From an uncultured Chloroflexia bacterium (GTDB lineage Bacteria; Chloroflexota; UBA6077; JACCZL01): a DNA stretch of 64,000 nt. The notes under the pieces were generated by a model, which had not been told where the DNA came from, ran no database searches, and saw only the letters and a list, made by a program, of their open reading frames with translations. Position 1 is the first letter of the stretch; every line of letters starts with the position of its first letter. The translations under genes were made by a program, and so were the position numbers. Where the stretch lies: NCBI GenBank assembly GCA_963765765.1, contig CAVXYC010000001.1, forward strand, positions 1 through 64,000. Reading direction: 5' to 3'. Positions 3,201 to 21,315 of this stretch are shown piece by piece.

Positions 3201-3290
3201 ACTTTGGGTCCCTTCCAGACTTGACAATGACGCACCGTCTAATCCCAAGCCCGGCGTCTGCTGAGAAAGAGCGTGGCCCGGCGTGATTAC

Positions 3291-3680
3291 AGGGAAACGG
3301 TTACCGGAATGGAAGTGGTGCGATGGGTGCCCGGTTTATCACCGGGCGATATGCATCGGCAGGACGACTCTCGAGCGATAAACCCGCGGAGTGCACGCGT
3401 TCAGGTGCCAGACGCCTCAACCATCAGGCCGCTCGGAGGGCGAACGTGAAGCTGAAGGGTAGCGACCCGCTCCGCGCCTCATTGCTATTGCTGGCGTAAT
3501 AGTCATCCCGATGCATATTGCCCGGTGATAAACCGGAGGCGCTCTCGGGCATTCCTTTTGCTTTGGTCGTAGCTCTTTAGGACTCGCGCTGCTATTGCTG
3601 ATGTACGTGTCATCGGCATGACTATTACGCCAGCAATGGCGTTAGGAAGCGGGCAGGACTCCCGTTCATGTTCACTCTCG
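3291..3680. repeat. cluster of family B dif-like sites in inverted arrangement
   Basis: TGCTGGCGTAA-TAGTCA-TCCCGATGCAT at 3489-3516; inverted copy at 3608-3635; 28/29 inverted repeat between 3331-3359 and 3508-3536. Confidence 0.7.
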
Positions 3681-3850
3681 ATCTGGCAGCCTGAGTACGT
3701 TGTCTGGTGACCGGCCGGAACGGATACAGCAGCTATCTCTCCTCAACGAGATCGAACGGGTGTTGGCACGCTCCCCGATCGCGGAATGCAGCTGCAGATC
3801 AATCACTTAAAGATACAGGGCGTCCGCCTCAGACAGTCAGTCCTCGCCAC

Positions 3851-4352
3851 CTAGTGCCTCCAGACACTGGGCCAACCATAGGCCGTGGCCTGATCCCGAG
3901 GCATAGCCGCGTAGGCCGCACGGAAGTGCAACTCGGCCTCATCCATGCGACCGAGATTGCCCAGCACCACGGCGAGGTTCCAATGAGCATAGGCGTTGTC
4001 GGGTTCCAGGGTGAGCGCGGTCGCCAACGCTTGGCTTGCCTCGTCAGGACGGTGCAGTCGCTGTAACGCGACCCCCAGGGCCGTATGCGCATTGGCGCGT
4101 CCAGGATCCACCTCGGTGGCGCGCGCCGCAGATGCGCGACCGCGCGATCCAGGCGCCGAGATCGCTCTCGGCCATGCCCAGGTTGTACAGCGTATCGCCA
4201 TCATCAGGATCGAGCACCACTATCGTCTCGAGAAACGGCACCGCCTCGGTGAACTTGCCGGACTTCAGGAGCCGCAGGGCGTGCTGTGTGAGCGAGCCTT
4301 CCGACGGCACGTTGGTCCAGGTGACCTCCACAGTGTTGTCCGTGATAGCCAC
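3851..4352 (-). CDS. tetratricopeptide-repeat protein, frameshifted
   Basis: DPDDGDTLYNLGMA, DPGRANAHTALGVAL, EPDNAYAHWNLAVVLG TPR motifs. Confidence 0.8.
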
Positions 4353-4691
4353 GTCGACCTCACCACCTAGACGGCCGAACCCGCCGCGAAATAGGCGCGC
4401 ACTGCATCGGTAAACGCGGGAGTTCCGCGGGCCCGACTGCGTTCCGGCAGCAGCCCGACATCGAAGTCGTCCAGCGCCGTACGCACGAGAGGGCCCCTAT
4501 CGTAGCCGCACCTCCCGACAAATAAGAGCTTCAACTCGAGGCGCGTACTGTAGGTCGAGTGGGCTTCCACTGCCGTCATCGCCGTAGCTGAATACCGAAG
4601 AACGCCAGCGGCGTCCAATCGACGTTGTGAGCACAGGGGATCTCAGAGCCGTCCGATCCGCCTGTATCCTTAGGTGAGCCATGAGTTGCGC

Positions 4692-6123
4692 ATGCCCCTG
4701 AACATTCTCCTCCTCTCCACCTACGAGCTGGGCCACCAGCCGCTGGGACTGGCCCAGCCGGCGGCGCACCTGGCCGCGGCCGGGCACCTTGTGCGGTGCC
4801 AGGATCTCGCCGTTGACTCGCTTAACGAACCGTGGGTGCGCGAGTCTGATCTCATCGGGATCTCCGTGCCGATGCACACGGCCGCCCGCCTGGGCGTGCG
4901 CCTGATCTCGCGGCTGCGCGGGCTCAATCCGGGGGCGCACCTCTGCTTCTACGGTTTGTATGCGGCGCTGCATGCCGAGGAGCTGCTGGCCGCCGGCGCG
5001 GACGCGACCATTGGCGGCGAGGTGGAGACTCCGTTGGTCGCGTTGGCCGATGAGCTGGACTCCGCTCGCGGGCAGAGCTCTCCTGAGAATGCCCGGACCG
5101 TGTTTCTCGGGCGCCAGTCATCGCTCGTACCGAAACGCACCATGCTCCCCCCGCTCGAACGGTACGCCCGGCTCCAGATCAATGAGGAACAGCGCCTCGC
5201 CGGGTACGTGGAGGCCAGTCGAGGCTGTGCGCACCGGTGCCGGCACTGTCCAATCCCGCCCGTGTACGGCGGCCGCATGCGCATCGTCTCGGAAGACGTG
5301 GTGCTCGCCGACATCCGCCAGCTTGTAGCCATGGGCGCCCGGCACATCACGTTTGGCGACCCGGACTTTTTCAACGGGATCAAGCACTCATTGCGCATTG
5401 TGGAGCGATTCCACCATGAGTTCCCGTCGCTGACCTACGACGCCACGATCAAGATCGAGCACATCCTGGAGCACCGGACGCACCTACCCGGGGCTGGCCT
5501 CAACCGGCTGCCTGTTCATCGTCTCGGCCGCGGAATCAGTGCAGGATCACGTGCTGGCGCACCTGAACAAAGGCCACACGGCCGCGGACGTGGACAGGGC
5601 CATCGAGATCACCAGATGCGCGGGTGTTGCGCTCCGCCCCACCCTTGTTGCATTTACTCCCTGGACCTCGATGGACGACTACCTGGAGCTGCTCGACTTC
5701 GTGGCCAGTCGAGGTTTGGCCAACAGCGTGGACCCGATCCAGCTCGCGATTCGACTGCTCGTTCCGAGCGGATCGTGGCTCATGGACGACGGACCGATGA
5801 GCCCCTTCGTCACGGGTTTCGATCACGAGGGCCTCACCCATCGCTGGATCCATCCGGATCCGCGCGTCGACCATCTCCAGAAATTGGTGATAGGAATCGT
5901 CGAGCGCGCCACAGAACAGGATGCAGCGCCCCTCGCCACGTTCCAGCAGATTCGGTCCGCCGCCTGGCGCGAGGCGGGTCGGTCGCCAGATGTCGCCCCA
6001 CCGCTCGAGCCCGCCGCGCACGTTTCGGTCCCGCGCTTGACCGAACCCTGGTTCTGTTGAGCGGAGCCCACCGCGGACCAGTTCGGTCCGCTCGGGCGAC
6101 CGGCGTCGACGGTCCTGATATGA
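4692..6123 (+). CDS. B12-binding-domain radical SAM protein with CUAEP tail (predicted selenoprotein); one frameshift near 5495
   Basis: LLSTYELGHQPLGL N-terminus, CxxxCxxC (GCAHRCRHC), C-terminal PRLTEPWFC-TGA-AEPT; readthrough frame ends at TGA 6121-6123 overlapping the next ATG. Confidence 0.88.
6067..6096 (+). promoter_or_regulatory. bacterial SECIS-like hairpin
   Basis: GCGGACC-AGTTC-GGTCCGC perfect 7-bp stem (6073-6091) beginning 12 nt after UGA 6058-6060; G in the loop. Confidence 0.7.
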
Positions 6124-7442
6124 GTGCTGGTCGGCTGCTCCTGCTGATGTCGACCCGGACGTATCGCTCACGGGCGTTCATGAGTGCCGCCCGACGCCTG
6201 GGAGTGGAGGTGGTGGTGGGCTCAGAGCAGCGTCAGGCGCTGGCCAACCGAGCGCGAAGCACCACGCTCACGCTCGACTTCCGTCGGCCGTCACATGCCG
6301 CCGATCAGATTGTGCGCGCGGCCCGCGAGCGCCCATATACGGCGGTCGTCGGCGTGGATGATGACAGTGTCCTCATCGCCGCGCACGCCGCGGCCCGCCT
6401 TGGACTCCGGCACAACACCGTGGAATCGGTGAAGGCCGCACAGGACAAATTCCGCGCGCGGAAGCTTCTTGCACGCGCCGACCTGCCACAGCCATCCTTT
6501 CAACGCGTGAGTCTGAACGCGGAGCCGCGCGCTGCAGCTCGCCGTGCCCCGTATCCGTGCGTGCTCAAACCCCTCTCGCTCTCGGCAAGCCGGGGCGTGA
6601 TCCGCGCGAATGATCCTGATGAGTTCGTGCGTGCCTTCCAGCGCATCAGGGAGCTTCTCGCGTCCGTCGGCGTCGGACATCGGCACCTGCTGGTCGAGAG
6701 CTTTGTTGCGGGGCCGGAGGTCGCCCTCGAGGGTTTACTGGCGGACGGCGATCTCCGGGTGCTGGCGCTCTTCGACAAACCGGATCCGCTGGACGGTCCG
6801 TATTTCGAGGAGACGCTGTACGTGACGCCGTCGCGTCTGTCCGGCGCCGTCCAGATGGCCATCCAGCAGACCACCGCGCACGCCGCGGCGGCGCTCGGGC
6901 TGCGCGAGGGGCCGATCCACGCCGAGCTGCGCATGGGCGAGCACGGACCCTGCGTGGTGGAAGTCGCGCCGCGCTCGATCGGCGGCCTGTGCTCGAACAC
7001 GCTGCGATTTGGTGTGGACGCGAGTCTCGAGGAGCTGATTCTCCGCCACGCGGTGGGCCTGGAGCCTGGCCCAGTTGGTCGCGAGCGGGTGGCGGCCGGT
7101 GTGATGATGCTGCCGATCCCTCAGGCGGGGATTCTGCGCACCGTCCGTGGCAGGGATGCTGCGCTCGAGGTCCCCGGCGTGGAGGACGTGTCGATCACCA
7201 TCCCGGTGGGCCAGCGGCTGGTACCCCTACCGGAAGGTGACCGCTATCTCGGCTTCGCCTTTGCTCGCGCCGGAACGCCGGAGGCCGTTGAGACAGCCCT
7301 GCGTGAAGCGCACCGTCGCCTGGAGTTCGTCATCGCGATCGAAGACGAACTCGCTAACGCTGAAGTCTGCTTGCCCGCGAACCCGCGGTCCTGGCCGCGC
7401 ACAACTGACGAATCGAAGCCGTTACCGGTGGTGGGTCGGTAG
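6120..7442 (+). CDS. ATP-grasp domain protein (L-amino-acid ligase-like)
   Basis: DKFRAR, YPCVLKPLSLSASRGVIRA, LLVESFVAGPEVALEG, VEVAPRSIGG; fused to the rSAM in the ORF track only through a frameshift. Confidence 0.9.
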   Translation: MSAGRLLLLMSTRTYRSRAFMSAARRLGVEVVVGSEQRQALANRARSTTLTLDFRRPSHAADQIVRAARERPYTAVVGVDDDSVLIAAHAAARLGLRHNTVESVKAAQDKFRARKLLARADLPQPSFQRVSLNAEPRAAARRAPYPCVLKPLSLSASRGVIRANDPDEFVRAFQRIRELLASVGVGHRHLLVESFVAGPEVALEGLLADGDLRVLALFDKPDPLDGPYFEETLYVTPSRLSGAVQMAIQQTTAHAAAALGLREGPIHAELRMGEHGPCVVEVAPRSIGGLCSNTLRFGVDASLEELILRHAVGLEPGPVGRERVAAGVMMLPIPQAGILRTVRGRDAALEVPGVEDVSITIPVGQRLVPLPEGDRYLGFAFARAGTPEAVETALREAHRRLEFVIAIEDELANAEVCLPANPRSWPRTTDESKPLPVVGR

Positions 7443-7449
7443 GGCGCTT

Positions 7450-8103
7450 TCAGCCCTTTGCCGGCTGATAGAAGGGGCTCGCGTCGGCGTCCGCGCCGCC
7501 TTTGGATGGCTCGTAATACGGGTTGTGCCCGCTCGCGTGGTCGGTCGTATCAACCACACTGTGGATCTGCGGGAATTCCTGCTGGATCAGATGCTCGATT
7601 CCCTGGCGCAGCGTCACATCCACCATGCCGCAGCCCTGGCAGCCGCCTCCCAGTCGCACGTAGACCACGTTGTCTTTGACGTCGATCAACTCCACCTGGC
7701 CGCCGTGCGAGGCCACGCCCGCACTTATCTCGCCATCGATGAGCTTCTGAATGCCGTCGGCGAGCGGGTCGTCCCAGCCCGCTGAGGGACTGTCGATCTT
7801 GAATCCGGAGCCCATGAGCTCATCGACGAAGTCCACCGTCGCGCCGCGAAGCTTCGGCAGAGTCTCGGCATCCACCAGAATCTTGAAATCGCCCTCATCC
7901 TGCACCGCGTCACCCGGCTCGGGCGACCCGTCCGACGTCAGCGCCATCGCGTAGGTGATCCCGCCAGCTCCACGGCCCGTGGCCGCGATGCGGACGGCCG
8001 CAGTGCCACGCACGTTCTGTTCGGTCAGCGCCTCAATCAGCCGCTGCCGCGCCAGCTCGGAGAAGGTGACGATTGTGTTGTTGCGATCCGTCGCTAAATC
8101 CAT
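7450..8103 (-). CDS. nfuA: NfuA-like Fe-S carrier (degenerate A-type domain + NifU C-terminal domain)
   Basis: GATVDFVDELMGSGFKIDSP plus SHGGQVEL..YVRLGGGCQGCG..TLRQGIE, DTTDHASGHNPYY. Confidence 0.85.
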   Translation of the reverse strand: MDLATDRNNTIVTFSELARQRLIEALTEQNVRGTAAVRIAATGRGAGGITYAMALTSDGSPEPGDAVQDEGDFKILVDAETLPKLRGATVDFVDELMGSGFKIDSPSAGWDDPLADGIQKLIDGEISAGVASHGGQVELIDVKDNVVYVRLGGGCQGCGMVDVTLRQGIEHLIQQEFPQIHSVVDTTDHASGHNPYYEPSKGGADADASPFYQPAKG

Positions 8104-8201
8104 GGCCTTATACCGTCCTTCCAGGACAGGGACGCTCCAGTCATGCTACCACGGCGCCGTCCGTGCGCTGGGTTTGATCCTACGAATGGAGCAGTCAGAG
8201 G

Positions 8202-8963
8202 TTATTCGGTCGCAAACTGCTGTCGGCGCTGGCGGTGGTAATCACCAAGCTGCGCATTAGCGGCCGTAATGATGGCGAGCGCGTCTACTACGCGAGGCAG
8301 GTCTCTGCCCGGTATTGCCATGTAGATCTCGTCCTCGCCGACATCGGTGTACACGCGGTTGCCCATGCAGCCGGTGCTCACCACGGTGCCCTGGGCCAGA
8401 GCGGCTGGGATGGCCATGCACGTCGGGCGACCCAACAGGGGGAGCTGAGCGGCGACGCCCGCTCGCATCGCGGCTTCGTAGGCCAGCATGATCCGGCCGG
8501 GTCGGCCTGAGAACAACACAACGTCCGGTTCGACCGGTGTGTCGCCGAGCGCGGCGTAAACCACGACCGCGGGCGGCCGCGCGAGCTGGGGGATCTGGGC
8601 CATCTCCTCCATGCGGACGTAGCCGATGTCCGACATGAGGCTGAGAGTCTGCTCAAGCTCCGGGGCTCGTTCGGGGGGAAGTGGGATGCTGTGCGTGTAG
8701 CTGCCGATCGCGCAGTTGTAGTGGTCCGATGGCACCGTGTAGAAGACTCGCCCCTCAGCGGCGAGTCGCCAGAAACTGCACCCCGCCGGCTCGACGCCAC
8801 CAAACTCTTCCACCCCGGCCGGCGGAGAATCCCTGAACGCCACCCCGACAGGGCGACGCGGGAGCGTTAGTGCGGCGTCCAACCGGCGCTCGAGACGTAA
8901 CCAACCGCTCGCGTCGTCCTCCAGGCAGCGTGCACGGAGATCTCCATTTTCGCTCACAGTCAT
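8202..8963 (-). CDS. DUF169 family protein
   Basis: PVGVAF, GCSFWRLAAEG, HYNCAIG, EPDVVLF, GRPTC, STGCMGNRVY motifs. Confidence 0.8.
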   Translation of the reverse strand: MTVSENGDLRARCLEDDASGWLRLERRLDAALTLPRRPVGVAFRDSPPAGVEEFGGVEPAGCSFWRLAAEGRVFYTVPSDHYNCAIGSYTHSIPLPPERAPELEQTLSLMSDIGYVRMEEMAQIPQLARPPAVVVYAALGDTPVEPDVVLFSGRPGRIMLAYEAAMRAGVAAQLPLLGRPTCMAIPAALAQGTVVSTGCMGNRVYTDVGEDEIYMAIPGRDLPRVVDALAIITAANAQLGDYHRQRRQQFATE

Positions 8964-9166
8964 ACTATGCGCCGCACCGGCCGGCACGTCAAGCGGAATA
9001 TGCGTCCGTCCCAGCGGAGAGCTCCGCGGCGTAGCCAGCGACAGTAATCTGTGTAGCAGAGTCCTCGTGTCTTGGCAGGCCGTTCGCAGCCATCCACCGC
9101 GCACGGACCATCCATACCCGCCCGTCCGAGCCCCAGAGCACAGCAACTAACGGCGAGTGCTACGTC

Positions 9167-10194
9167 TCACTGGATCACTTCCGTCGCCTGGCTCAGCAGC
9201 GACGGTGGAATGGTGATTCCCAGCGCCTGGGCCGTCTTCAGGTTGATCGCGAAATCGAATGTCGTGGGGCTGCTCAATAGGCAGTCGCCTGGGTTGGCGC
9301 CCTTGAGAAATTTGTCCACGTAGCCGGCGCCGCGGCGCCAGAGGTCGAGGCTATTCCGGCCATAGGCGACAAGAGAGCCCTCACCAGCTCCGTGCCCTCC
9401 GACATCAACGGGAGTCGGTTCAGAAGCGTAAAGTCGGCGATACGACCACGCTGGTTGCCTGCCATAAGCGGATCTTCCAACACCATAAGCGCATCAGGGC
9501 GCACCTGGGCCAAAGTCGCCAATCCTTGGTCGAAGTCATCAAGGCCGGTGACTCCCACGGAAACGATCTCCAGGCTATCCCGCTGGGCCAGACTGCGCAG
9601 CTCATCAAACTCTCTGACCTTGGACGCTTCGGCGGTGTTCCAGAGCACGGCGAGTCGGCGTAGGGACGGGCGGATCTCCCGAAGCAGCTCCAGGCGCTTG
9701 CCCACCGTATTGACCGCGTTTGAGCTCAGGCCGGTCAGGTTGCCGCCGGGGCGGGACAGACTGGTCACGAACCCGTCCCCGACTGGATCGGCGCTGACCA
9801 GCATGACGATCGGCGTGGTACTTGTGGTGTCGAGCGCGGCACGAATCGCGGCATTCCCCGATACCGCGATCACGTCCACCTCGAGGCTCACCAATTCGGA
9901 TGCAAGCTGGCCGAGACGCTCAGTCCGGTTCTCGGCCCACCGACTCTCGAGGGTCATGGTCTGCCCATCAACGTAGCCCAGCTCGCGCAAGCCGTCCAAA
10001 AACGCGTCGGGCGGTGACATGCCGGAAATGCCAGCAGGGACGACTCCCAGACCACCCAGGAGCAGCAACCCAACGCGGGGCACGCGCGCCGGCCTCCGCG
10101 GTTGCCACGGCAGGGCCGCACACCCGGAGAGCAGGCCGAAAGTGGCCAGGGCCAGGCTGTGAAGCACGAACTTGCGGCGGCTCTGGCGGTTCAT
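9167..10194 (-). CDS. ABC transporter substrate-binding lipoprotein, frameshifted near C-terminus
   Basis: SRRKF..LSGC; DPVGDGFVTSLSRPGGNLTGLS; GKRLELLRE. Confidence 0.9.
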
Positions 10195-10313
10195 GACCTG
10201 CCCAAGAGGCTACTACTATCCGCGCGGCTGCGCCACACCCCCTGAGTACTACCTACGCCCTGAGTGGGATGGTGTCCGTTCGTAAACGGGCGCCTTGATA
10301 GAGCTAGCGGTGA

Positions 10314-10357
10314 TTATCGGAACGAGCGGAGGAGCTCGTGCGGCGATTGATGGCTGA
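10314..10357 (+). repeat. family A half-site with downstream box
   Basis: TTATCGGAACGAGC...ATTGATGGCTGA matches the reverse complement of 17047-17083 (TTATCAGAACGAGC...ATTGAGGCTGA). Confidence 0.5.
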
Positions 10358-10391
10358 GACGGGGCTCGCCGCTGCAGAGGGTGGAACGAGG

Positions 10392-11416
10392 TCACTGGAT
10401 CAGCTCAGTCGCCTGGTTCAACACGGATGCGGGTATCGTGAGTCCGAGGGCCTGGGCGGTCTTGAGGTTGATGACCAGGTCGAACTCGGTGGGCTGCTCC
10501 ACCGGCATGTCCGCGGGATTGGCGCCCTTGAGGATCCTGTCGGCATAGCGTGGCGGCACGGCGGAATTGGGCGAGCCGGTTCGGCCCGTAGGAAATCAGC
10601 CCGCCCGCGTCCGGGAAAGATGCGGTCTTGAGCCAGCACGGGCAGCCGGTGCGCTCTCGCGAATTCGACGATCCGCCCCACCTCACCGGCGAAGAGTGGT
10701 GACCCGCTCACCAGGAGTGCTTCGGCATGGTCCTCGACGGCCATCTCCAAGGCGGCTGCGAGATCCGCGGCGGTGGTAATGTCCGGTGCCATGAGCTGCA
10801 CGCCGAGCGACTGGGCGGCCTGCTCCACCTCCTGCAGACCGCCGGTCGACTGGGATGCGCTCGCGTTGGTGAGAAACATGACCCGCGAGACACCCGGTGC
10901 CAGCTCCCGCAGCAGCTGCAGGCGTTTCCCCATGGCCTGCGGCGCCAGGGCGCTCAACCCCGTCACGTTTCCGCCGGGCCGGGCCAGGCTGGCGACAAGC
11001 CCGGTTCGGACCGGATCGGGCGCGGCGGCGAAGACGATCGGGATCGTGCGCGTGGCACCCATTACTGCCTGGGTGTACAACGTTCCTGCGCCGACACAAT
11101 CAGGTCCACCGGCAGAGCCACCAGCTCAGCGGCCATGGCCGGAACCTGCTCGGACGACTCCGCCAGGCGCACCTCGATCGCGATGTTCTGGCCCTCCGAT
11201 GTACCCCAGCTCGCGCAGGCCTGCGCGGAATGCCTCGAGCTCGGCTGTCGGCGCGGCGCTTGGCGCCAGGTACCCGATCCGAGGAACCTTCGTCCCGCCG
11301 GAAGCGGGCTGTCCTGGGAGCGACACAATTCCACAGCCAGAGAGCAAATTAAGGCTCGCGAGGATCAGGCCGCCCCGCAGGAACGCGCGCCGCTGTAGAG
11401 GGTGGAACGAGGTCAC
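10392..11416 (-). CDS. ABC transporter substrate-binding lipoprotein, frameshifted
   Basis: [13 protein letters not shown]; [22 protein letters not shown]; ends ..TELIQ. Confidence 0.9.
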
Positions 11417-12425
11417 TGGATCAGCTCGGTCGCCTCGGCAAGGACCGACTGAGGAATCGTCAGACCCAGCGCCTGTGCGGTCTTGAGATTGATCACCAGG
11501 TCAAATTTCTCCGGCCGCTCCACGGTAGCTCCGCGGGATTGGCGCCCTTCAGAATCTTGTCCACATAGGTGGCGGCGCGCCGCTCCTGGGCGGCACGATT
11601 TGCCCCGTAGGCGATCAGTCCGCCGACTGCCACATATCGCCGATCGGCCCATCATGGGCAACCGGTGCGTGAGCGCCAGCGCGCCGACTCGCGCCACATT
11701 GCTCGCCAGCACGATATTGTCCACCAGGGACAGCGCATCCACGCGCTCATGCACCGCTCGCTCGAACGCGCCCTCGAGGTCGGCGGAATCACGCACCTCC
11801 AGCGGCACCAGCTTCAGCCCCAGGGGGCCGGCCGCGGCCTCCGCATCCGCACCTGGCCGGCCTGGTCAGAGACCAGGCCGTCAGGGTTCCAGATAATGCC
11901 AACGCGTGACACGGACGGGAGAGTCGTTCGCAGGACTTCCAACCGCTTCCCAATCAGCTCGCGGGCGATGTTGGTCTGCCCGGTGACGTTGCCTCCTGGC
12001 CGTGCAAGACTGGCCACAAAACCGTCCTCCACCGGGTCGTTCGTCCGTGCCATCACAATCGGGATGGTGCTGGTGGCACGCATTGCGGCCTGGATATTAG
12101 GGGCCCCGGAGGCCACGAGCACGTCAACGGGCAAGCTCACGAGCTCGGCGGCCGGCGCGAGGGAGCTATCAACCTGCCCACTGGCGGGTCGCCACTCCAC
12201 GGTGACGGTGCTACCCTCAACGTAGCCCAGCTCTGCCAGGCCCTCCCGAAAGGCGTCGGCCCATTCCTGTTCGCCGTTCCACAGGTAGCCGATACGCGGT
12301 GGCCGAACCGCCTGCTGCGAGCGTGGCGATACCAGCCCACAGCCGGCCAGCAGACCGAGGCCGGCCACGGACAGGCCACCCCTGAGGAAGCGGCGACGGG
12401 TGCAGGAATGTCCGAGTGGCGTCAT
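11413..12425 (-). CDS. ABC transporter substrate-binding lipoprotein, frameshifted
   Basis: TRRRFLRGG..LAGC; [20 protein letters not shown]; [16 protein letters not shown]; 5' end nearly identical to the gene at 2033. Confidence 0.9.
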
Positions 12426-12479
12426 GATGGGGCTAGTGTACGCCCGCGGGGTGCTTGGGACAATCCGTAGCGTTGGTGC

Positions 12480-12716: not shown

Positions 12717-12809
12717 ACCGCTGAGCTTTCCCCATCGTCAATGAATCTCGGCGATCGCACACTGACCTCAAGCATCAGCTCGGCACGGTAGTCGGTACAA
12801 TTTGGCTGT

Positions 12810-13500
12810 ATGTGTGGACGCTACACGCTGGGTGATCCCAGCCCCTTGAAGCGGCGGTTCGGCCTCGAAGAGTTTGCCGAGACGACCATGACGCCGCGGT
12901 TCAACGTGGCGCCCTCGCAGGACATCCCCATCGTGGTGCAGCAGCTCGGACGACACGCGCGAGCTGCGGATGGCCAAGTGGGGCTTTGTGCCCTTCTTCA
13001 TGGACGGAAAACCGGGCAAGCGCCCGCCCCCGATCAACGCTCGAGCCGAGACGCTGGCCACCAGCGGCATGTTCCGCTCGAGCGTGGGCAAGTACCGCTG
13101 CATCATCCCTGCGGATGGCTTCTACGAGTGGAAGATGATCGACCCCGACAAGAAGACCAAACAGCCCATGTACGTCCAGCTCCAGGACACGAGCCTGTTT
13201 GGCTTCGCGGGGATCTACACATTGCCGACGAAGACGCACCCGGGCGGGAACGGCCGCGATTATCACCACCACGCCCAACGAGCTCATGAAGCCCATCCAC
13301 AACCGCATGCCGGCGATCCTGCTGCCCGCGTTGGAAGACGTCTGGCTGGATCCGAAGATGACCGACACGGCCGAAGCGCTGACCATGCTGATGCCCTACC
13401 CGGCCGAGTCCATGCAGGCGATCCCCGTCTCGAAGAAGGTGAACAGCGGCGAGCGGTCAGGGGCCGGAGCTGATTCTGCCGATCACCTCAGCGTGATCCG
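12810..13500 (+). CDS. SOS response-associated peptidase (SRAP/YedK/HMCES abasic-site protection), frameshifted; end approximate
   Basis: N-terminal MCGRY, PRFNVAPSQ, INARAET, RCIIPADGFYEW, IHNRMPAIL. Confidence 0.92.
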
Positions 13501-13893: not shown

Positions 13894-14250
13894 CTACCGC
13901 GTATGAGGCACCTGCGATCTAGCGTGCACCGCCGCGTCGGGCACCCGTCCGGATGCGTTCGTCCACGGTTGACGCGAGCGGTTACGGGCCTCGACATGGT
14001 CGCGAACGCGTCGCAAATCGTGCAGCAGCAAGCTCATTCGGGCTCGGGTCTCCGGGGCATGTTGCGTCTTGGGTGCGAGCTCGCCGTAGTGATCGAGCGC
14101 TTCGAACATGCTGCGCGCCGCCGCTTCCCCGTCCGGTAACTCGAACCCGCCTCCGACGTCCACCGCGCCGATGCCGATCAGGTCCCCGTGGTCCAATTGC
14201 GCGCGCAGCTCAGGGAGCCAGGACGCGGGACGTTCGGTGTCCGATCTCAT
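13894..14250 (-). CDS. hypothetical protein
   Basis: GGGGAA RBS-like sequence before ATG; globular composition (WLPELRAQLDHGDLIGIG). Confidence 0.45.
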   Translation of the reverse strand: MRSDTERPASWLPELRAQLDHGDLIGIGAVDVGGGFELPDGEAAARSMFEALDHYGELAPKTQHAPETRARMSLLLHDLRRVRDHVEARNRSRQPWTNASGRVPDAAVHARSQVPHTR

Positions 14251-14500
14251 CAGATTCCCCCGACCTCGTGGTTCTAGCCGGAGGCCGCACAATCCACGCC
14301 AACTCTCGGATTGGACGGGCCCGAACCTTGGCAGAGTGCCGTTACCCGGGAAGATTGGCGTCATTCACTTGGGGTGCGCGCTTTGTGCGCATTGATACGG
14401 GCTCAGTTCGGATGTCCGCGCAGGCGATGCGGAATGAATCCTGCGGGCCTTTCGAGCAGGACGAGCGGCCATCCGAGCTCCATGTGGGAGGACATCAGCC

Positions 14501-15196
14501 ATGAACGCTCACCGACTCGCCGCCACCGCCACCCTGGTGGCCACGATCAGCGCCGCCGGGCTCGCCGACGCGTCGCATGCGTCGCAGGAATCGGAGAATC
14601 TCACCCCCGAAGCAGCCGAGCGTCAGTTCACGGCCTGCGGGTACGAGGTCATCCCATCGGGTCGGGTGAGCGATCACCCCGCGACGTTGCTCCCGCGCTT
14701 TACCCCGATCGAGCACCCCGACACGGCGGCGCTCTTCGTGGTGCGCGACGCGGGCGAAACCACGCGCGAAGACGGTCGATCGCTGACGGCCGTCGTGTTC
14801 CCGACGCTCGCGGAGGCCGAGCATGTGTTCCAGGATGGGGCCAGGCTGATGCGGGTCGCCGATCAGGTGCAACGACTGGAATCCGGGCACGGCGTCGACA
14901 CCGGGCCGCCACCGCTCCCGGTGGACACGGATCTGGGCCCGCCGCTGTTCCTGGGGCACGGCCTGACCGTCTGGCGGAGGAACGTGGCCCTCACCCAACT
15001 CATCACGCCGCCGGTCACGGCGGTGCGCGCGACGGCCGACGAGCTCGAGCGGCGCGGGCTGGACGCGGCCTCGGCAAGCCGATCGGAATTCACCGGGGCG
15101 GCACAGCGAGCGTTGGCGGCGACCAAGCCGCGCTCCGCCGAATCGACGCGCAGTCCGGTCGACCGTGATTTCGTTCGCTGCCTGGGCGGTCAGTAA
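14501..15196 (+). CDS. secreted hypothetical protein
   Basis: GGAGGA RBS, signal peptide MNAHRLAATATLVATISAAGLADA, two Cys. Confidence 0.65.
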   Translation: MNAHRLAATATLVATISAAGLADASHASQESENLTPEAAERQFTACGYEVIPSGRVSDHPATLLPRFTPIEHPDTAALFVVRDAGETTREDGRSLTAVVFPTLAEAEHVFQDGARLMRVADQVQRLESGHGVDTGPPPLPVDTDLGPPLFLGHGLTVWRRNVALTQLITPPVTAVRATADELERRGLDAASASRSEFTGAAQRALAATKPRSAESTRSPVDRDFVRCLGGQ

Positions 15197-15430
15197 CCAG
15201 GGGATTGGGCAGCCGGGCAGTACTGGCTCCTGGCACCCTGAAAGGAGTGCCAGGGGAGCTTTCAGGACGAGCGGCGGCGCTTTGGAGCAGCTCGTCATGA
15301 GCTTCGAAAGCGCGATGACGGACCACACGCCCGTTTCAGCCACCGCGAAATAGAGATGTGATCGGTATAACCGTCAAGTTGGTGGTATTCCGACGTGGCG
15401 TCCAAGGATCCCAATGGGTGCACGGGCCAT

Positions 15431-15900
15431 TCAGTCCGGCGCCGCGAGGAACTCGATCGGTACCCATCCTTCCAGCCCGTTCTCACCGCGCACATGCGCC
15501 CACTCGCCGTCAGGCCGCTCGATCACGGTCACCCGGGCCCCCTCGAGCAGGCCGCGCGGCACCCGGGCGTCCTCGCGCGGCGCGGTGCGGAGCACCACGC
15601 CCTGCCCGTCCGTGTGCGCCACCCGGGCAGCCTCACCGGGGCCCGGCGCCGGCCGAGAGTCCGCCTCCGGCGCCGCGGCGGTCGGCGCGTCAGGCACGTT
15701 GGTGCCGCGGTCGCTCGCGACGGGCCCGCGCGCGGTCGCGACCCTCGCTCCGGCCGACGCACGGACCCAGGAGAGGTCGAGGGACAGAGCAACGAACCAG
15801 CCGACCGCGACCGGTAGGGCCACCAGCAGCACGAACACCCAGGCCGGGACCGCCCCGCTCTGGGTCCCGAGCGAGGCTGGTCGCTCGACGGGTACGCCCG
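15431..15900 (-). CDS. membrane-anchored bacterial SH3 domain protein (start uncertain)
   Basis: TM segment then VAHTDGQGVVLRTAP..LLEGARVTVI..EWAHVRGENGLEGWVPIEFL. Confidence 0.75.
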
Positions 15901-16098
15901 GTAGCGTCCGCCTCGAGTCATCCACGAGTCCTCCGCGGCGCCACGGCGGCTCCTGCGAACGCCGTCGTGGCACATTTGCACTACCAAGTCCATCGCGGCG
16001 TACACGCCGCACCCTGCGGGCGCTGGAGAGCGTACCAGTTCCGACTGCGGCTCGGGATCGAGCGACAGCGTGCGACTCCGGCCCGGACGCAGCTCCAG

Positions 16099-16166
16099 CG
16101 TGACGGCGAATGGAGATGTCCTGGTGATGCGGCGCTGGTGCTGGCGTAATAGTCATCGGGATGATG
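16099..16166 (+). repeat. family B dif-like site with upstream box
   Basis: CGTGACGGCGAATGG...TGCTGGCGTAA-TAGTCA-TCGGGATGATG (core 16139-16166). Confidence 0.65.
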
Positions 16167-16284
16167 GATGAGGCGCGGCCGCGCGATTCCTCCCACCGTG
16201 GACCCAAAACAACAAGCTCCTTCGCGACTTTGGGGTCAGTGGGTCAGCGGTGAGACCACCCATTCGGAGCTGCCCGGCCGGATA

Positions 16285-16524
16285 CTATTCCTCATTGATG
16301 ATCTGCAACGGTGTGACACGGATGACACCATCGCGGCTCGGTAAATTCTCGACGATCGCCTCATGCAGGAACCTCAGGTTGTCGCAGTGGAGGTGGGCCA
16401 CCACTTCCGCGCCCATGAAGTTGTGGCCGAGCGCTAGGCAATTCGTCAGATTGCTGCCGATGCCGGCCAGCACGTCGCCGGTCTTATCCACTGTGGTCTC
16501 TATGAGGACGTATGCGCGCACCAT
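16285..16524 (-). CDS. stand-alone Lrp/AsnC ligand-binding domain protein
   Basis: MVRAYVLIET..GVIRVT pattern; GAGGAGG RBS. Confidence 0.75.
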   Translation of the reverse strand: MVRAYVLIETTVDKTGDVLAGIGSNLTNCLALGHNFMGAEVVAHLHCDNLRFLHEAIVENLPSRDGVIRVTPLQIINEE

Positions 16525-16599
16525 TGTTTGCCTCCTCCTCACCGCGAGCGACGGACGGGCTGACACGAGCGCGCCATTGGCCCGCCGTGCGTCGTCTCG

Positions 16600-16830
16600 T
16601 TACTTAACCGGATTCTACGTGCAAATTCCTCCATCGTCTGGCACACCGTTGAGCGTCGTCCGTCGGAAGAGGCCGTCGGAGAACTGCGATTGGCCGCGGC
16701 ACCCATCATGGACAGGCTCCGAGCGGAGTATCGGGCTGCGGGACACACGGACGAAGATGGCCCCGCGATGTTCCGCTGGCTTCGTGCCAAGGTGGCGAAC
16801 CGCGGCTCGGTTGCGGATCGGCCCAGACTC
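16600..16830 (+). pseudogene. degenerate paralog of the 1189-1488 hypothetical gene
   Basis: HTVERRPSEEAVGELRLAAAPIMDRLRAEYRAAGHTDEDGPAMFRWLRAK; no start codon upstream of the conserved region after the stop at 16561. Confidence 0.55.
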
Positions 16831-17072
16831 TCGAAGACTCCTCTGACAGGTCGAGCGTCTCCCGACAGCCGCGTCGTCCATGAAACGGGAGTTCTCCGCC
16901 GGGCCCGCCCACGGGAAAGAGACAGGATCGTCCTGTGCCAGCATGGGCGGGACGATGAGCGTGGACCTGAAGGTTCGGCGGCACCGCACAGCGGAATCGC
17001 GCAACAGCCGTCGCTTGTCCAGTCGTCCATGGTGGTTCACGTGTGAGTCAGCCTCAATTCGTGTCGCCGGCT

Positions 17073-17100
17073 CGTTCTGATAATGGAGGTTATCGGACCC
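17073..17100. repeat. family A 11-6-11 palindromic site
   Basis: CGTTCTGATAA-TGGAGG-TTATCGGACCC. Confidence 0.65.
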
Positions 17101-17170
17101 TCGACCACGGTCCCGACTGGGCCGGGTGTCCTACAATCTCCCCTCATGCTTACCATGTTTCGGGGGCAGT

Positions 17171-17700
17171 ATGCGCACGGAACTCGGCTATCGCGCGCAG
17201 ATGGGAGTGATGACTCCCGCCACCAACACGACGGTCGAGCCCGAGCTCTACCGGATGGGCCCGGCCGGCGTGACGTTCCATTTCGCCCGGATTTCCGTTG
17301 CGGGCGGACCGCGGGAGGACAGCCAGGGACCCATTCCGGCGATGCTCGAGACGCCCCTGCGGGACCTCGCTGCTATGGAGCCGGACCACATTCTGCTCGG
17401 CATGTCGGCGCCTTCCTTCGCGGGAGGCGTCGAGGGGGACCGGCGCCTGCGCGCGGCCATCGAACAGAGGATGGGGACGCCGGTCACGACCTCCGGTGAG
17501 GCCGCCCTGGCTGCGCTCCAGGCCTGTAAAGTCCGGCGCATCGGAGTGCTGTCGCCCTATGCCGCGAGCATGGACGAGCAGACCACCGACTTCTTCAGCG
17601 GGCGCGGGGTACGAGGTGGTGCGGTACCGGAGGCTGGAACGCGGCAGCCCGGCCTCCATCGCGGCCAGGTGCAAGGTGGCATCCCGGATCAGCCGATCGG
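17171..17700 (+). pseudogene. maleate cis-trans isomerase/Asp-Glu racemase family protein, 3'-truncated
   Basis: GVMTPATNTTVEPE, GVTFHFARI, PVTTSGEAALAALQACKVRRIGVLSPY; C-terminal catalytic region not seen. Confidence 0.75.
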
Positions 17701-17770
17701 AATCGATATGCTCGGGTGGCGGCCTTACAGCTTCGGTGGCCGCGGCGGCAGCACCGGGAGGCCTCCCCAC

Positions 17771-18628
17771 ATGAGTACCTCGAGCGTACCGCGTCGAAAC
17801 GTGCTGAAACTCGGCGCGGTCGTCATCGCCAACAGTCTCTTCGCCACGATGTCACAGGTCAGTAATCACGACCTGACGCCGGCCCCGGCCCTGGCCGGGC
17901 CCCCGGACCAGGTACCGACGCCAGCGCTAGCCCTCACCCAGGGAGTCTGGCTGTGGCAGCACACCGCCTACGCAAATGACCAGACCGTCGTGTGCGCGGA
18001 CCCTCGCAAGTACACCCTCGCCTTCCTCGACAGCGGCCTCTACGGCGTCCAAGCAGACTGCAATCACGGCAGTGGGAGCTACGCCGTGGCCGGGACGCAG
18101 CTCACTTTCCAGCCAGGGCCGATGACTCGGGCGGCCTGTCCGCCGGGCTCGCAGGACACGGTGTTTCTGCAGGATTTGGGGCAGGTCGCCATGTACGTCT
18201 TCGACGGCGAAAACCTGGTGCTCAACCTGTGGCTGGACAGCGGCAACATGGTCTTCAGTCCGCAGCCGGCGGTTTCGCTGACCGGCTCTGCCTGGCAGGT
18301 ACTGGGCGTCAACAACGGCCATGGCGCGGTAGTCTCGGTGCTATCGGAGACGCAACTCGACGCGACGTTCGGCGAGAACGGTATTGTCAGCGGCACCACT
18401 GGCTGCAATACGTACCGCGGGCTGTATACGGTTGCCGGCCCGACGATTGCGCTCGGCCCGCTGATCAGCTCCCATCAAGCCTGCCCCTCGGAGGCGGCCG
18501 CGGTGCAAGAGCAAGCCTTCCTCGCGGCGCTCGGCGCATCCACCAGATATGAGCTGCGGGACGACCGCCTGACGCTTCGCAGCGACGCGGGGGCCACCCA
18601 AGTCGACCTGGTTCGGCCGATGGGCTAG
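17771..18628 (+). CDS. Tat-exported double META (HslJ-like) domain protein
   Basis: PRRNVLK signal; ADCNHGSGSY..MTRAACPPGS and GTTGCNTYRGLY..ACP..QEQAFLAAL. Confidence 0.85.
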   Translation: MSTSSVPRRNVLKLGAVVIANSLFATMSQVSNHDLTPAPALAGPPDQVPTPALALTQGVWLWQHTAYANDQTVVCADPRKYTLAFLDSGLYGVQADCNHGSGSYAVAGTQLTFQPGPMTRAACPPGSQDTVFLQDLGQVAMYVFDGENLVLNLWLDSGNMVFSPQPAVSLTGSAWQVLGVNNGHGAVVSVLSETQLDATFGENGIVSGTTGCNTYRGLYTVAGPTIALGPLISSHQACPSEAAAVQEQAFLAALGASTRYELRDDRLTLRSDAGATQVDLVRPMG

Positions 18629-18699
18629 CATCGTGGCCCATTGCGCCGACCAGCAGCCACAGCCGCAACTACCCCCGCCTATCACGACGTGGCCCGACC

Positions 18700-19739
18700 G
18701 TCTGGGCGCCGAGGCGCGCTCAGCTCCTCATAGAGAGTCTGGCGGAAGAACGCATGGGCAAAACGGTAGTGAATCGCGCCGGGCCGCGCCTCCTCCTGCA
18801 GGACCGCCATCCGCGTGGACTCGCCAAGTGCCGATTCGAGCTCATCCTGCGGGACCTGTGCTATCTGTTGGAGGACGTCCAGACGGAACTCACGCCCGAT
18901 CACTGCGGCGATGGCAAGGACTCGATTGGTCGCTTCGGAGAGGCGGCTCAGCCGTTTGCCGATGACGTCGCACAATCCTTCCGGGATGCCGGACTCCGGA
19001 TTGCCATCGTCGGTCCGAACCCATTGAGCCCCCTTCGCGTACCACAAACCCTCTTCGACCAGGTAGCGCAAGACCTCTTGCACGAACAGCGGATTTCCCT
19101 CTGTCTGGCGATGGATCGCCTCCGCCCGGCTCCAGGCGATCTCCTGGCCGCGAACCTGCTGCATCATGCGGTGCACCTCGTCCACCGAGAGACCACGCAG
19201 CCCGATGCGCAGGAAGGCTGACGAGCGGCGCAGATCGGCCAACGCCCCTGAGAGCGGGTGACCGCGATCCACTTCCACATCGCGATAGGTCCCGATGATC
19301 AGTAGGCGCGTACCGGTCAGATTGCGGGCCACGTGGTGGAGCAGATCAAGCGTGCCCCAATCCGCCCAATGGAGATCTTCCAGGACCACGACCAGAGGCT
19401 GGCGGCCCGAGGCATTCCGCATGAAACCGCTGATCGCTTCAAGCAGGCGCCAACGGTCTTCTTCGCGGACCACTGGCCGGTGGGCGCGGCTCGATGGCCA
19501 CGCGCTCGCGGACCTCGGAGATGATACGGGCCACAGCTTCGGCGCCTGAGCCAAGCGCCTCCTTGAGCGCGTCGGGCTCGCGGGTGAGAACGTAGCTCCG
19601 GAGGGCTTCGACAAACGGGAGGTACGGCAAGGAGAGGGAGCCCTCCTCGTAGGAGTGGCCTACCAGGGTGGCCCCTCCACGGACGGTTGCATAGCTGGCC
19701 AATTGCTCCCACAGCCTCGTTTTGCCGATGCCCGGCCCC
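18700..19739 (-). pseudogene. internal fragment of a STAND/AAA_16 ATPase regulator
   Basis: GPGIGKTRL P-loop at the 5' edge, LEDLHWAD, TEGNPLFVQE, YRFAHAFFRQTLY; both ends missing. Confidence 0.85.
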
Positions 19740-19815
19740 TATCTGGAACCTGCGTCATCCAATCTCGAGAGACGGTCCTCGGCGGGTGGTTCCGAGCACG
19801 GGGATTCTCGGAACC
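19740..19815 (-). repeat. family A site at the ATPase truncation point
   Basis: Minus strand reads GGTTCCGAGAA-TCCCCG-TGCTCGGAACC, 37 bp, GGTTCCAGATA; same layout as 3095-3172. Confidence 0.6.
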
Positions 19816-19936
19816 TAGGATAAGATACGCTCCGTTGCAGTCTCTGCCCAGAAGTATGGCCGATTGCCATTCATGGTTGGCACAGAGCTTGCGTGAGTTC
19901 GCCCGGCACCGCTCAGATGCACATCATGGAGGACGA

Positions 19937-20113
19937 ATGGCAACGTTTGAGTCACTGGGGCAGGACAATCCGAACATTCGGCAGCAATACGACGAGTGGA
20001 GCACCGCGCGCTCCCAGAATGGCGAGGACCCGACGGACTGGGAGGCCTTCCGTACGCACGTGCTGGCCCTGGGCGCCCCGGACCCGGGGAGCGAGTCACC
20101 GGACGACCTCTGA
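19937..20113 (+). CDS. small acidic hypothetical protein
   Basis: GGAGG RBS; MATFESLGQDNPNIRQQYDEW..DPTDWEAFRTHVLALGAPDPG. Confidence 0.7.
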   Translation: MATFESLGQDNPNIRQQYDEWSTARSQNGEDPTDWEAFRTHVLALGAPDPGSESPDDL

Positions 20114-20224
20114 AAGACGGAGGCCGGACGGAGCCGGCGGCCACGCACCGGTCGGGTGGCTCGGCTCCATTGAGACGCACACTGAACAGCATCGACCACG
20201 ACCACGAGGAGGAAGGCAACACCA

Positions 20225-20404
20225 GTGGCCGACATCGCGAAATACGTGAACAAGTCGCACGAGCAGAAGGACTTCGCCGAGCTGGCCGAGCTGCCCACCG
20301 ACGCGCTGCAGGGCGTGAGCAAAGGCGACGCCGAGGCCATTCAGAAGGCCTTCGGCGTCAAGCCGATCCGGCAGCTGGCCGAGCACAAATTCGTTCGGGC
20401 CTGA
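20225..20404 (+). CDS. small hypothetical protein (59 aa, below the ORF-track cutoff)
   Basis: GAGGAGGA RBS; MADIAKYVNKSHEQKDFAELAELPTDALQGVSKGDAEAIQKAFGVKPIRQLAEHKFVRA. Confidence 0.7.
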   Translation: MADIAKYVNKSHEQKDFAELAELPTDALQGVSKGDAEAIQKAFGVKPIRQLAEHKFVRA

Positions 20405-20415
20405 GCCGGGGCGAC

Positions 20416-20868
20416 TTATCGCGTACTGCCCAGCGGCGGGTCGAAGGTCCACTCCTGCTCGGCTCCGCTGGTGTCCTCCCACTGCACCACCACCGTCCCA
20501 TTCGCCTGGGAGGCGCCTGGCACGGCGAGCAGCTTCCGGCTGGCCTGGTTGCGCAGCCGCATCCCGCCGTTCGGGCCCGGCTCCAGCGTCCACACCTGGT
20601 CCGATTCCCCGCGGTCATCCCATTGGATCAGCTCCGTGCCGTTGTCGCGGGATCCCTGGGGATTGGCCAGCACCTTGCCGCTCGCCGCGTTCCGGAGCTG
20701 GGCACCGCCGCCCGGCACGGGCTCGAGCGTCCAGGCCTGCTCGGGGCCACCCGAGTCGTCCCATTGGATGATTTTGGCGCCGCTGTCGCGGGAGCCGCCG
20801 GGGTTGGCCAGGAGCTTGCGACTGGCGAGATTGCGGAGACGGTACGCGATTGGACGCATGGTCATGAT
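20416..20868 (-). CDS. ricin-type beta-trefoil (RICIN) lectin domain protein
   Basis: Three repeats of LRNxASxKxLAxPGxSxxNGxxxIQW..EQxW. Confidence 0.88.
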   Translation of the reverse strand: MMTMRPIAYRLRNLASRKLLANPGGSRDSGAKIIQWDDSGGPEQAWTLEPVPGGGAQLRNAASGKVLANPQGSRDNGTELIQWDDRGESDQVWTLEPGPNGGMRLRNQASRKLLAVPGASQANGTVVVQWEDTSGAEQEWTFDPPLGSTR

Positions 20869-21186
20869 GTGCCTCGTGACGGGGCTCATCGGGACGGCCG
20901 CGGTCGCTCATGCGCCGTTCCCGATGGACCCGGTCGTGGGTGCAAGCGGCGTGCCTCTGCGCAAAGGGAGTACCGTCGCCTCTACGATGCATGTGTGATG
21001 TGTGCGTGAATCAGCGAGCGGGAGATTTCCGTGCGCTGCTGGTCCATCATTACGCCGTCCGACCGCGGGGGCGCAAACGGTTGCGCTGGCAGTGCACCGA
21101 GCGCGAGACGAGGGAGTCTGCTGGAATTGGTAGCCCATGCGAAACGATCGGATGGAGCGGTCCGGCTAGCGGACTCGGAGATGCAG

Positions 21187-21315
21187 CGTGAAAGCGAAGG
21201 GGAGAGTCCCGGCCCCGACACCATTCTTATTGTTGGCGTAATAGTCATCTCGATGCACATTGCCCGGTAAATGAAAACCCTACGCCCGGGCCTGCCCTTC
21301 CGGGTAACCGTCCCG
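21187..21315 (+). repeat. complete family B site with both flanking arms
   Basis: CGTGAAAGCGAAGG...TGTTGGCGTAA-TAGTCA-TCTCGATGCAC-ATTGCCCGGT...GGTAACCGT. Confidence 0.65.

Follow-up and report, generated by a model that had tools for sequence, protein, structure and literature searches.

Short sequences that recur in both orientations within accessory DNA raise the question of what they are copies of and how they came to stand beside different neighbours. That question is posed here by a repeat in the first part of a 64,000-nucleotide stretch of DNA from an uncultured Chloroflexia bacterium (contig CAVXYC010000001.1, positions 1 to 64,000 of the forward strand; the whole of this stretch is called the window), which a first-pass annotation had read as a dif- or attachment (att)-like site with interchangeable left and right arms. 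The centre of the repeat reproduces the last codons and stop of dnaN, the sliding-clamp gene, and the copies are taken, with moderate confidence, to be att-type sites of tyrosine-integrase elements that target the dnaN end, those in the window being mostly relics in an accessory mosaic, without an intact cognate integrase. The genome that holds the window (G000) is a metagenome-assembled genome (MAG) of 6.49 Mb in 33 contigs, 92% complete, with contigs labelled C1, C6, C7 and so on. It was compared with its congener G001 (650 contigs), with G007 from another genus and with other relatives (41 genomes for the core pattern, 10 family genomes for BLAST, and 28 dnaN loci from 7 families of the order), as well as with 53 soil metagenome contigs holding 54 sites (L-numbers; most of these stretches are 1-4 kb long).

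The repeated core as a copy of the dnaN end

The 17-mer TGYTGGCGTAATAGTCA, with up to two mismatches allowed, has four matches in the window (3489-3505 +, 3619-3635 -, 16139-16155 +, 21231-21247 +), where 0.01 are expected and where four were reached in none of 100 shuffles, and the four positions claimed for the core at first pass are thus borne out. Upstream of each lies the box GTGANNNYGAA(N)GG, which between positions 1 and 24000 occurs solely at these places (3446-3459 +, 16100-16113 +, 21188-21201 +, 3662-3675 -) and whose GTGA...GAA.GG columns are invariant in the alignment of the four sites; its distance from the 17-mer is 43 nt at 3489, 39 nt at 16139, 43 nt at 21231 and 40 nt at 3619. 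The right-arm motif CGATGCAYATYGCCCGGT, with at most one mismatch, has three matches (3341-3358 -, 3509-3526 +, 21251-21268 +; expected 0.00). Copies with both arms (L+R, at 3489 and 21231), with the left arm only (L-only, at 3619 and 16139) and with the right arm only (R-only, inverted, at 3329-3365, the arm reaching back to 3115) therefore coexist in the window, as had been claimed.

The shared core is AATAGTCATCCCGATGCATATTGCCCGGT, and its right half consists of the last codons and the stop (..PMHIAR stop) of dnaN on contig C7. On the strand of the 17-mer the sequence that follows it reads ..GTA ATA GTC ATC CCG ATG CAT ATT GCC CGG TGA, i.e., ..VIVIPMHIAR and a stop, and the core copies keep both the frame and the stop of dnaN (..V[IM]PMHIAR stop). 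Nine sites in the whole genome contain CCRATGCAYATYGCCCGG; at eight of them the frame is 20-151 codons long and the sequence upstream is unrelated, and the one on C7 ends a frame of 404 codons, which is the sole long frame among the nine and the genome's sole match to PF02768 (beta-clamp C-terminal domain, E 4.6e-19). When the last 75 nt of dnaN were used as a query, nine other places in the genome were found at E <=0.08, all of them matched on the last 19-39 nt (query 35-75), among them C20:11319-11281 (36/39), C6:22406-22442 (33/37) and C1:191042-191066 (25/25), and the window copies were met at 3508-3526, 3361-3341 and 21251-21270. The direction of copying is given by the relatives: ..MPMH.. 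stands at the DnaN end in 23 of the 28 loci, mostly as HVIMPMHVAR stop, and since this tail is native across the order the repeats are copies of the dnaN end and not the reverse. The native end (CAC GTG ATC ATG CCG ATG CAC GT.) is itself already a near-palindrome.

The first-pass annotation had divided the site into two 11-nt arms around 6 nt; no dyad is present at that place, the dyad lying 8 nt further right, and the supposed left half-site is flank. In G000 the dyad is formed by TAATAGTCAT (3497-3506), CCCG and ATGCATATTG (3511-3520), with 7 of 10 positions complementary (chance ~0.0035, as a single test). In relatives it is AACGTGCAT / GCCG / ATGCACGTT, complementary at 9 of 9 positions; 11 of the 54 metagenome sites have this form, as do copies in G007, in G006 and in one more MAG. 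The right half is ATGCACGTY in other genera because DnaN has Val there and Ile in the genus of G000; ATGCATATTG is the Ile allele and the left half tracks it, and in other genera the left arm that supplies AACGTGCAT (..GGTTTTGCAGAAGCGAACGTGCATG) is not related to that of G000. In each of two unconnected families of left arm the half-site thus mirrors the family's own dnaN allele, which points to selection for the dyad, as expected of a dimeric DNA-binding enzyme. The window copies fold no better than shuffles (z 0.04, -0.90, 1.52 and -0.71), and in seven relatives the z-scores are uneven (-0.05 to -4.25).

Exchange of flanks and the dnaN end in relatives

A profile of core plus right arm has 13 matches in G000 at E <1e-5 and six weaker ones (eight of its genome matches were seed sequences, and the 3489 copy stood in the seed alignment), which puts the copies at ~14 to 19 in 6.5 Mb. 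The left flank designated class B, which is the arm described at first pass, is found at 3489, 3619, 16139 and the C10 duplicate of the latter, 21231, C32 and C1:191045; flanks that continue dnaN for ~13 codons (YFHVVIPM..) are found on C20, at C6:22421 and, diverged, at C15:676285; those on C23 and at C6:36480 have CAATAGTCATC alone in common; and the copy at 3359 has a left flank of its own group. Right arms are of type 1, TGATAAACCGG.. (~235 bp), or type 2, TAAATGAAAA.., and the sequence 3' of dnaN itself differs from both. Class-B left arms are paired with type 1 (C1:191045 and, in part, 3489) and with type 2 (21231, C32), and dnaN-like or other left flanks are likewise paired with type 1 (C20, C6:22421, C23, 3359) and with type 2 (C6:36480). 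Homology between copies extends from just left of AATAGTCAT to just right of GCCCGGT, which defines a common core of 29 bp; in the L-only copies it is gone after ..CATSSSGATG, just beyond the centre. Conservation of the copies peaks in the centre, and their outer ends vary from copy to copy. At C23:468619-469087 the type-1 right arm is present as a tandem duplicate, the second unit of which begins inside the core at GCCCGGTGATAAACCGG.

Occupied and empty states of the dnaN end, with the breakpoint at the core, are seen among the relatives in the break between G000 and G001, in an open reading frame (ORF) common to G000 and G007, and in the element genes of G008. The DnaN proteins of G000 and G001 are 91% identical, and their loci agree at 82% through dnaN and 70% upstream of it; the alignment ends at position 2651 of the aligned loci, and the dnaN stop codon ends at 2652. 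In the 1.5 kb downstream of dnaN just five pairs among 20 relatives have anything in common. G000 and G007 have a convergent ORF in common just downstream of dnaN (40% identity over 93 amino acids), so that the dnaN of G000 probably stands beside its ancestral neighbour and would be an empty site; judged by this comparison it probably is unoccupied. On contig C178 of G008, by contrast of state, dnaN is followed on one strand by core, right arm, an ORF of 122 amino acids, a helix-turn-helix (HTH) protein, an 893-residue DUF3854 protein and a 424-residue Phage_integrase; genuine dnaN followed by a right arm is also found in G006 and in several soil contigs.

Copies are patchily distributed. The core pattern, with two mismatches or fewer, is present in three of the 41 genomes (nine times in G000, once in G001, twice in G007), and by BLAST copies are found in five of the ten family genomes, G007 having five of them, three in direct orientation on its contig C4; the class-B left arm is found by BLAST in G000 alone and in none of the nine other family genomes. 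The dnaN of G007 ends GCA AGA TGA and its five other copies end GCCCGG or near variants, and hence these were not copied from the present G007 dnaN. In the soil metagenome the 53 contigs with dnaN-end copies have unrelated left arms, and two direct copies lie on L103; no integrase was found between direct copies on G007:C4 or L103 in the ORFs scanned. The core with different flanks was also met on one X3 contig assembled from public data, and viral contigs gave 0 matches to the core pattern. Contig C72 of G007 carries a second partial dnaN (108760-109104, residues 252-364, the protein nearly identical to that of its own dnaN) and, 17 kb away, the matching terminal fragment (126240-126345, ..PGILCPADGPKGSLHVIMPMLVAR stop and right arm); between the pieces lie at least one clear core copy (125346) and weaker core-like matches at 115200 and 120637.

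The att-like arm swapping proposed at first pass thus survives in a corrected form, as a 29-bp core with exchangeable flanks, identical with the dnaN end, at whose stop codon the homology of congeners breaks, and with integrases near some of the relatives' copies. The dif/Xer reading is not supported: there are ~14 copies, their parent is the dnaN coding end and the 11-6-11 architecture is missing. Nor does GC skew turn in the window: cumulative skew falls from ~-0.04 to ~-0.5 across the window with small reversals and no sustained turn.

From these observations we infer the class of enzyme, the position of crossover, the role of the box and the inactivity of the window copies, as follows. Integrative elements of soil Chloroflexota would dock at the conserved dnaN end (..VIMPMH[IV]AR stop) and bring their own copy of that end, which would leave DnaN intact after insertion. 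A tyrosine integrase would bind as a dimer to the half-sites TAATAGTCAT and ATGCATATTG and exchange strands within the central ATCCCGAT, so that with every event a left and a right flank are newly combined and copies of the L+R, L-only and R-only kinds arise. Candidate arm sites would be the box GTGA..GAA.GG, ~40 nt to the left, and, ~45 nt to the right, the same box inverted (CCNTTCC..), and the ~13 copies outside dnaN, five of them in the window, lying in a mosaic of repeated accessory modules, would probably be relics.

Candidate recombinases and competing explanations

Some copies in relatives have an integrase gene near them. In G008 the integrase is 5 kb from the core copy; in L118 the copy has a 422-residue integrase 3 kb to its left and is followed by convergent oligopeptide-permease genes; and in L133, which has the same core as L118, a 272-residue integrase is found 0.7 kb leftward of it. 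These two are the only metagenome stretches of the 53 with integrase-seed matches, in a search that also recovered the G008 seed gene. In G000 the integrase genes near copies are frameshifted, and none lies in the window.

A number of observations weigh against an integrase-based origin of these sites. The window has no Phage_integrase-family match, in keeping with the earlier statement that it encodes no recombinase; G000 has 21 such matches, most of them fragment-like, and those near copies are a frameshifted phage-type integrase 2.1 kb from the C20 copy and another ~6 kb from C1:190865-191279, the two being no closer kin to each other than to the rest. The G008 integrase was rejected as the cognate enzyme, its family being found in G008 alone among the 41 genomes; no tblastn match to the G008 element proteins was obtained in G000, and no second core copy is present on G008:C178 within 10.4 kb. 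Neither a complete element with dnaN-side and far-side sites and an integrase, nor a clean tandem array of elements of the kind that would yield attP-like junctions, was found in the material searched. Complete L-core-R units, which are attP-like, have ordinary genes on either side, for instance those of ABC transporters, a LuxR-TPR regulator or an asparaginase-like protein, and nothing mobile in their vicinity; L115 and L123 have Pfam matches for 4 of 10 ORFs, none of them mobile, and G007:C4 is alike. The left arms resemble diverged inverted right arms, which gives the whole unit the shape of an imperfect palindrome ~130-150 bp long, unlike the usual attP. Because a repeat boundary occurs about every kb in the window mosaic, the location of sites near module boundaries means little. 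A coding-like frame in the right arm, which has no start codon and is described below, is not accounted for by this reading.

Of the intact integrase genes of G000, at C15:325619 and C20:548824, the one on C15 adjoins tRNA-Lys. Other enzymes were considered and set aside: resolvases and the TnpB zinc-ribbon family have 0 matches each in G000, and of IS110 (5 matches) and Y1_Tnp (HUH, 3 matches) none lies near a copy. G000 also has Xer-like integrases at C29:41451 and C10:277094, and nothing ties them to the sites.

The absence of mobile neighbours from complete units, the palindromic form of those units and the lack of a clean array make a serious rival of the view that the L-core-R unit is a small non-autonomous palindromic repeat of ~130-150 bp (foldback, or like a miniature inverted-repeat transposable element (MITE) or repetitive extragenic palindrome (REP)), produced by one inverted duplication of the dnaN end and its downstream sequence and spread in trans, its likeness to dnaN being a matter of origin alone. 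It accords with left arms that bear the right-arm box inverted at the mirrored distance around a centre that is a dyad, with the intergenic position of complete units, with the 11 palindromic copies among the 54 metagenome sites and with the presence of Y1_Tnp (HUH) genes in G000. These genes are, however, not near the copies, which are few for such a repeat and are most conserved in the centre rather than at the outer ends; target-site duplications and filled/empty pairs are not on record, no dedicated search having been made, and the folding scores cited above (z -0.9 to +1.5 in the window, uneven in seven relatives) lend no help. L-only and R-only copies, dnaN-like left flanks and the break at the dnaN stop are also unaccounted for, and this view is accordingly considered rather unlikely, although it is the strongest of the rivals. 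Plain duplication is a distinctly less probable one: a fragment of the dnaN end would have been copied by chance, without dedicated machinery, and then altered by homologous recombination and gene conversion among paralogous modules. The first 24 kb of the window are indeed dense with repeats common to >15 contigs (66-99% identity), and the 16139 copy is merely part of an 836-bp duplicate; such a process would nevertheless have to account for dnaN-end copies that recur beside unrelated left arms in 53 soil contigs and other genera, for breakpoints clustered within 29 bp, for two unconnected arm families in each of which the left half-site mirrors the local allele of dnaN, and for homology between congeners that breaks at the dnaN stop codon.

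The conserved dyad and the boxes at fixed distances would suit an operator for a dimeric regulator, and features of the arms would suit a unit that encodes a small peptide, in either case copied along with the genes that it controls. In the right arms, 22-26 nt past the dnaN-type stop and on the same strand, a frame reads G-V-P-F-x-[VIL]-x-[VIF]-x-L (as GVPFxVxVxL and a stop at 21286-21324 +, at 3282-3320 - and in L092-L144). Its codon positions 1 and 2 are nearly fixed and position 3 varies (24 of 39 distinct metagenome tails), an in-frame stop lies 8-10 codons past the box proline codon in 18 of 24 tails, and in the TGA class the spacer that precedes it is 19, 22 or 25 nt, i.e., changes in length are in frame. 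In G008 its stop abuts the ATG of the first element ORF. Against these signs of coding, the frame has no start codon and is not in the same register with the core in the TGA class as in the TAA class, and the antisense register that shares its third positions is also stop-free (0 of 21), with less conservative substitutions. A longer ORF running through the core was rejected, since its upstream part shows no conservation at the protein level and the two classes are in different frames. The box of the left arm is the inverted form of the GVPF-region motif, and the motif may serve an integrase as an arm-type site, may encode a leader peptide or may have some other role. In the left arm, short proteins starting from ATGACTATT (MTITPA..) were rejected because all five substitutions between 3489 and C32 change an amino acid; four of these five are synonymous in an antisense frame of 30 codons (MHRDDYYAS..), the length of which is kept, but this frame was not adopted: it is interrupted by a TAG in C1:191087, lacks a start at 3619 and is frameshifted in two copies including 16139, and its synonymous pattern is common to the opposite strand. 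A structured RNA was likewise rejected, there being no Rfam match at the cluster and no significant fold z-score, and no promoter-like or terminator-like site was found in 3000-3900. As the genes beside the copies are unrelated among themselves and the identity with the dnaN end is left unaccounted for, an operator or peptide unit is considered very improbable.

Among known systems the sites come closest in several respects to those of gene-end integrative elements and prophages. In these a tyrosine integrase targets the end of a conserved gene, and the element brings a replacement for that end; dusA-specific integrases are an example (PMC4482086). The likeness lies in a site that is the end of a housekeeping gene with frame and stop kept, in occupied and unoccupied states that differ among close relatives, in flanks exchanged at a short core and in target-end scars that pile up. 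The differences lie in the target, dnaN, in the many complete attP-like units away from it, in left arms that are inverted kin of right arms, and in the cognate integrase, which is not identified for the G000 sites. Islands of the P4 type have an integrase that targets tRNA genes. Integration at conserved gene ends is a known kind of system, and what is new here is the dnaN target, the palindromic units and the startless frame; dnaN as an integrase target did not turn up in the literature searched. A Xer/dif site is 28 bp long and consists of a 6-bp spacer flanked by 11-bp arms that are partly dyad-symmetric; the chromosome has one, at the replication terminus where GC skew turns, and XerC/XerD recombine it. 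The modules of pdif systems are bounded by sites of alternating orientation. Like dif and like the pdif modules of Acinetobacter plasmids, the present sites are short, lie in accessory DNA without an adjacent recombinase and, for the first four window copies, alternate in orientation (-, +, -, +). Unlike dif, they have half-sites of 9-10 bp around 4 bp (or 7-8-7) and a parent that is coding sequence, and unlike pdif modules they bound intervals that are not discrete gene modules, with nothing to tie them to XerC/XerD.

With REP sequences and bacterial interspersed mosaic elements (BIME), enterobacterial repetitive intergenic consensus (ERIC) sequences and Rickettsia palindromic elements they share the form of an imperfect intergenic palindrome of 130-150 bp, one copy of which overlaps the end of a coding gene; Rickettsia palindromic elements sit inside genes. 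They differ from all of these in low copy number, a conserved centre, half-units with swapped flanks and the lack of support for a stable fold in the window copies. Integron attC sites and the attP hairpin of CTX phage, recombination sites that act as folded single strands, are also imperfect inverted repeats, of ~60-150 nt, that a tyrosine recombinase could read, whereas attC has conserved boxes at its outer ends and single-gene cassettes in one direction, a pattern not seen here.

Should the integrase-based reading be correct, a large soil lineage, most of it uncultured, would have an integration hot spot at the end of its sliding-clamp gene, the scattered copies would help to locate the borders of islands and past rearrangements where Chloroflexota MAGs are fragmented, and a palindromic docking site within coding sequence conserved across an order would offer a clean case of integrase target choice and a possible source of new site-specific integrases. 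A further proposal, regarded as unlikely, is that of a live trans-acting system in soil Chloroflexota, in which the dnaN-derived palindromic site would be a universal joint at which accessory modules, ABC-transporter genes for example, are inverted, exchanged and stacked by orphan or host recombinases, and which may also bear the startless GVPFxVxVxL frame at the element entry point. Such a system would be a chromosomal analogue of pdif modules and would account for the gene mosaics of these genomes. The window sites show no sign of present activity; no public read run contained more than 0.23 of the sampled words of 3000-3900, and the short contigs obtained from these runs contained no joints of excision or inversion, such as inversion of the 123-bp segment between the inverted cores at 3329-3365 and 3489-3526 would leave.

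Copies and neighbouring genes in the window

The five window copies follow one another in the orientations -, +, -, +, + at intervals of 123 bp, ~75 bp, 12.5 kb and 5 kb, which are not single-gene cassettes. The first three form a tight cluster that begins with the inverted right arm of the R-only copy (3115-3328 -, type 1), which contains CCATTCCGG at 3304-3312 and GGTAACCGT at 3297-3305; the stretch 3115-3351 matches C23:469087-468850 at 88.8% identity, and 3130-3361 matches C1:191279-191046 at 84.9%. Its core (3329-3365 -) reads ..VVLPMHIAR stop and then a CCGGT..ACCGG hairpin. Next comes a class-B left arm (3369-3488 +) with the box GTGAAGCTGAAGGG at 3446-3459, 3369-3526 being 92.4% identical to C32:296750-296907, and then the 17-mer and true core (3489-3528 +), with the dyad at 3497-3520 and the frame GVIVIPMHIAR ending in TGA at 3526-3528. 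The right arm of this copy is short and diverged (3529-3582 +; profile match 3498-3582, E 2.5e-13, the copy having been a seed). The cluster closes with the inverted L-only copy (3611-3720), of which 3611-3635 - holds the 17-mer and the core as far as ..CATGCCGATG, where core homology ends, and 3636-3720 - the left arm with the box GTGAACATGAACGG at 3662-3675. The same layout, an inverted partial core, ~112 nt and then L-core-R, is found at C1:190865-191279.

The copy at 16139 has a diverged left arm (16080-16138 +) with the box GTGACGGCGAATGG at 16100-16113, followed by the 17-mer and TCGGGATG (16139-16163 +). It lies within a repeat of 836 bp (15384-16219) that is 97.9% identical to C10:150467-149632 and covers the 5' region of a minus-strand gene with an SH3 domain. 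At 21231 a class-B left arm (21174-21230 +) with the box GTGAAAGCGAAGGG at 21188-21201 precedes the 17-mer and core (21231-21270 +), which end an ORF (21031-21270) in ..VIVISMHIAR and TAA at 21268-21270; 21174-21277 is 78.8% identical to C32:296813-296916. The type-2 right arm (21271-21324 +) contains CCCTTCCGG at 21295-21303 and GGTAACCGT at 21303-21311 (profile match 21240-21324, E 3e-10). A 39-bp sequence at 21778-21816, ~450 bp past this copy, matches its own reverse complement at 92%.

Against G001 the first 40 kb of the window give paralogue-level matches alone (66-82% identity), and they are therefore accessory DNA or are missing from the 650 contigs of that assembly. Many of the modules here are repeated elsewhere in the genome. 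The ABC_sub_bind (PF04392) genes at 2012-3054, 9159-10158 and 10330-12450 are 1-kb modules with at least 10 repeats over many contigs (85-95% identity), some of them split over two frames (e.g., 2033-2788 and 2611-3054); at two loci, window 3054/3115 and C1:191279/192560, a gene of this kind has a type-1 right arm abutting its 3' end and convergent with it, and in L118 and L124 a right arm is followed by convergent transporter genes. A module for an SOS-response associated peptidase (SRAP; 12770-13492) is found on at least seven other contigs (66-90% identity), one copy lying just downstream of dnaN on C7, and the AAA_16 ATPase gene at 18682-19614 - has six paralogues (69-75% identity) in arrays at C20:1981-7478 and C23:31194-45938. 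The 922-residue ORF at 4674-7442 +, 1 kb downstream of the site cluster, has an N-terminal B12-binding radical-SAM domain fused to a C-terminal ATP-grasp / L-amino-acid-ligase domain, and its DNA is not repeated elsewhere in the genome. The window has a single Rfam match at gathering level, a riboswitch of the c-di-GMP-I class at 63431-63508 +, which scores 55.9 bits where 35 is the gathering score.

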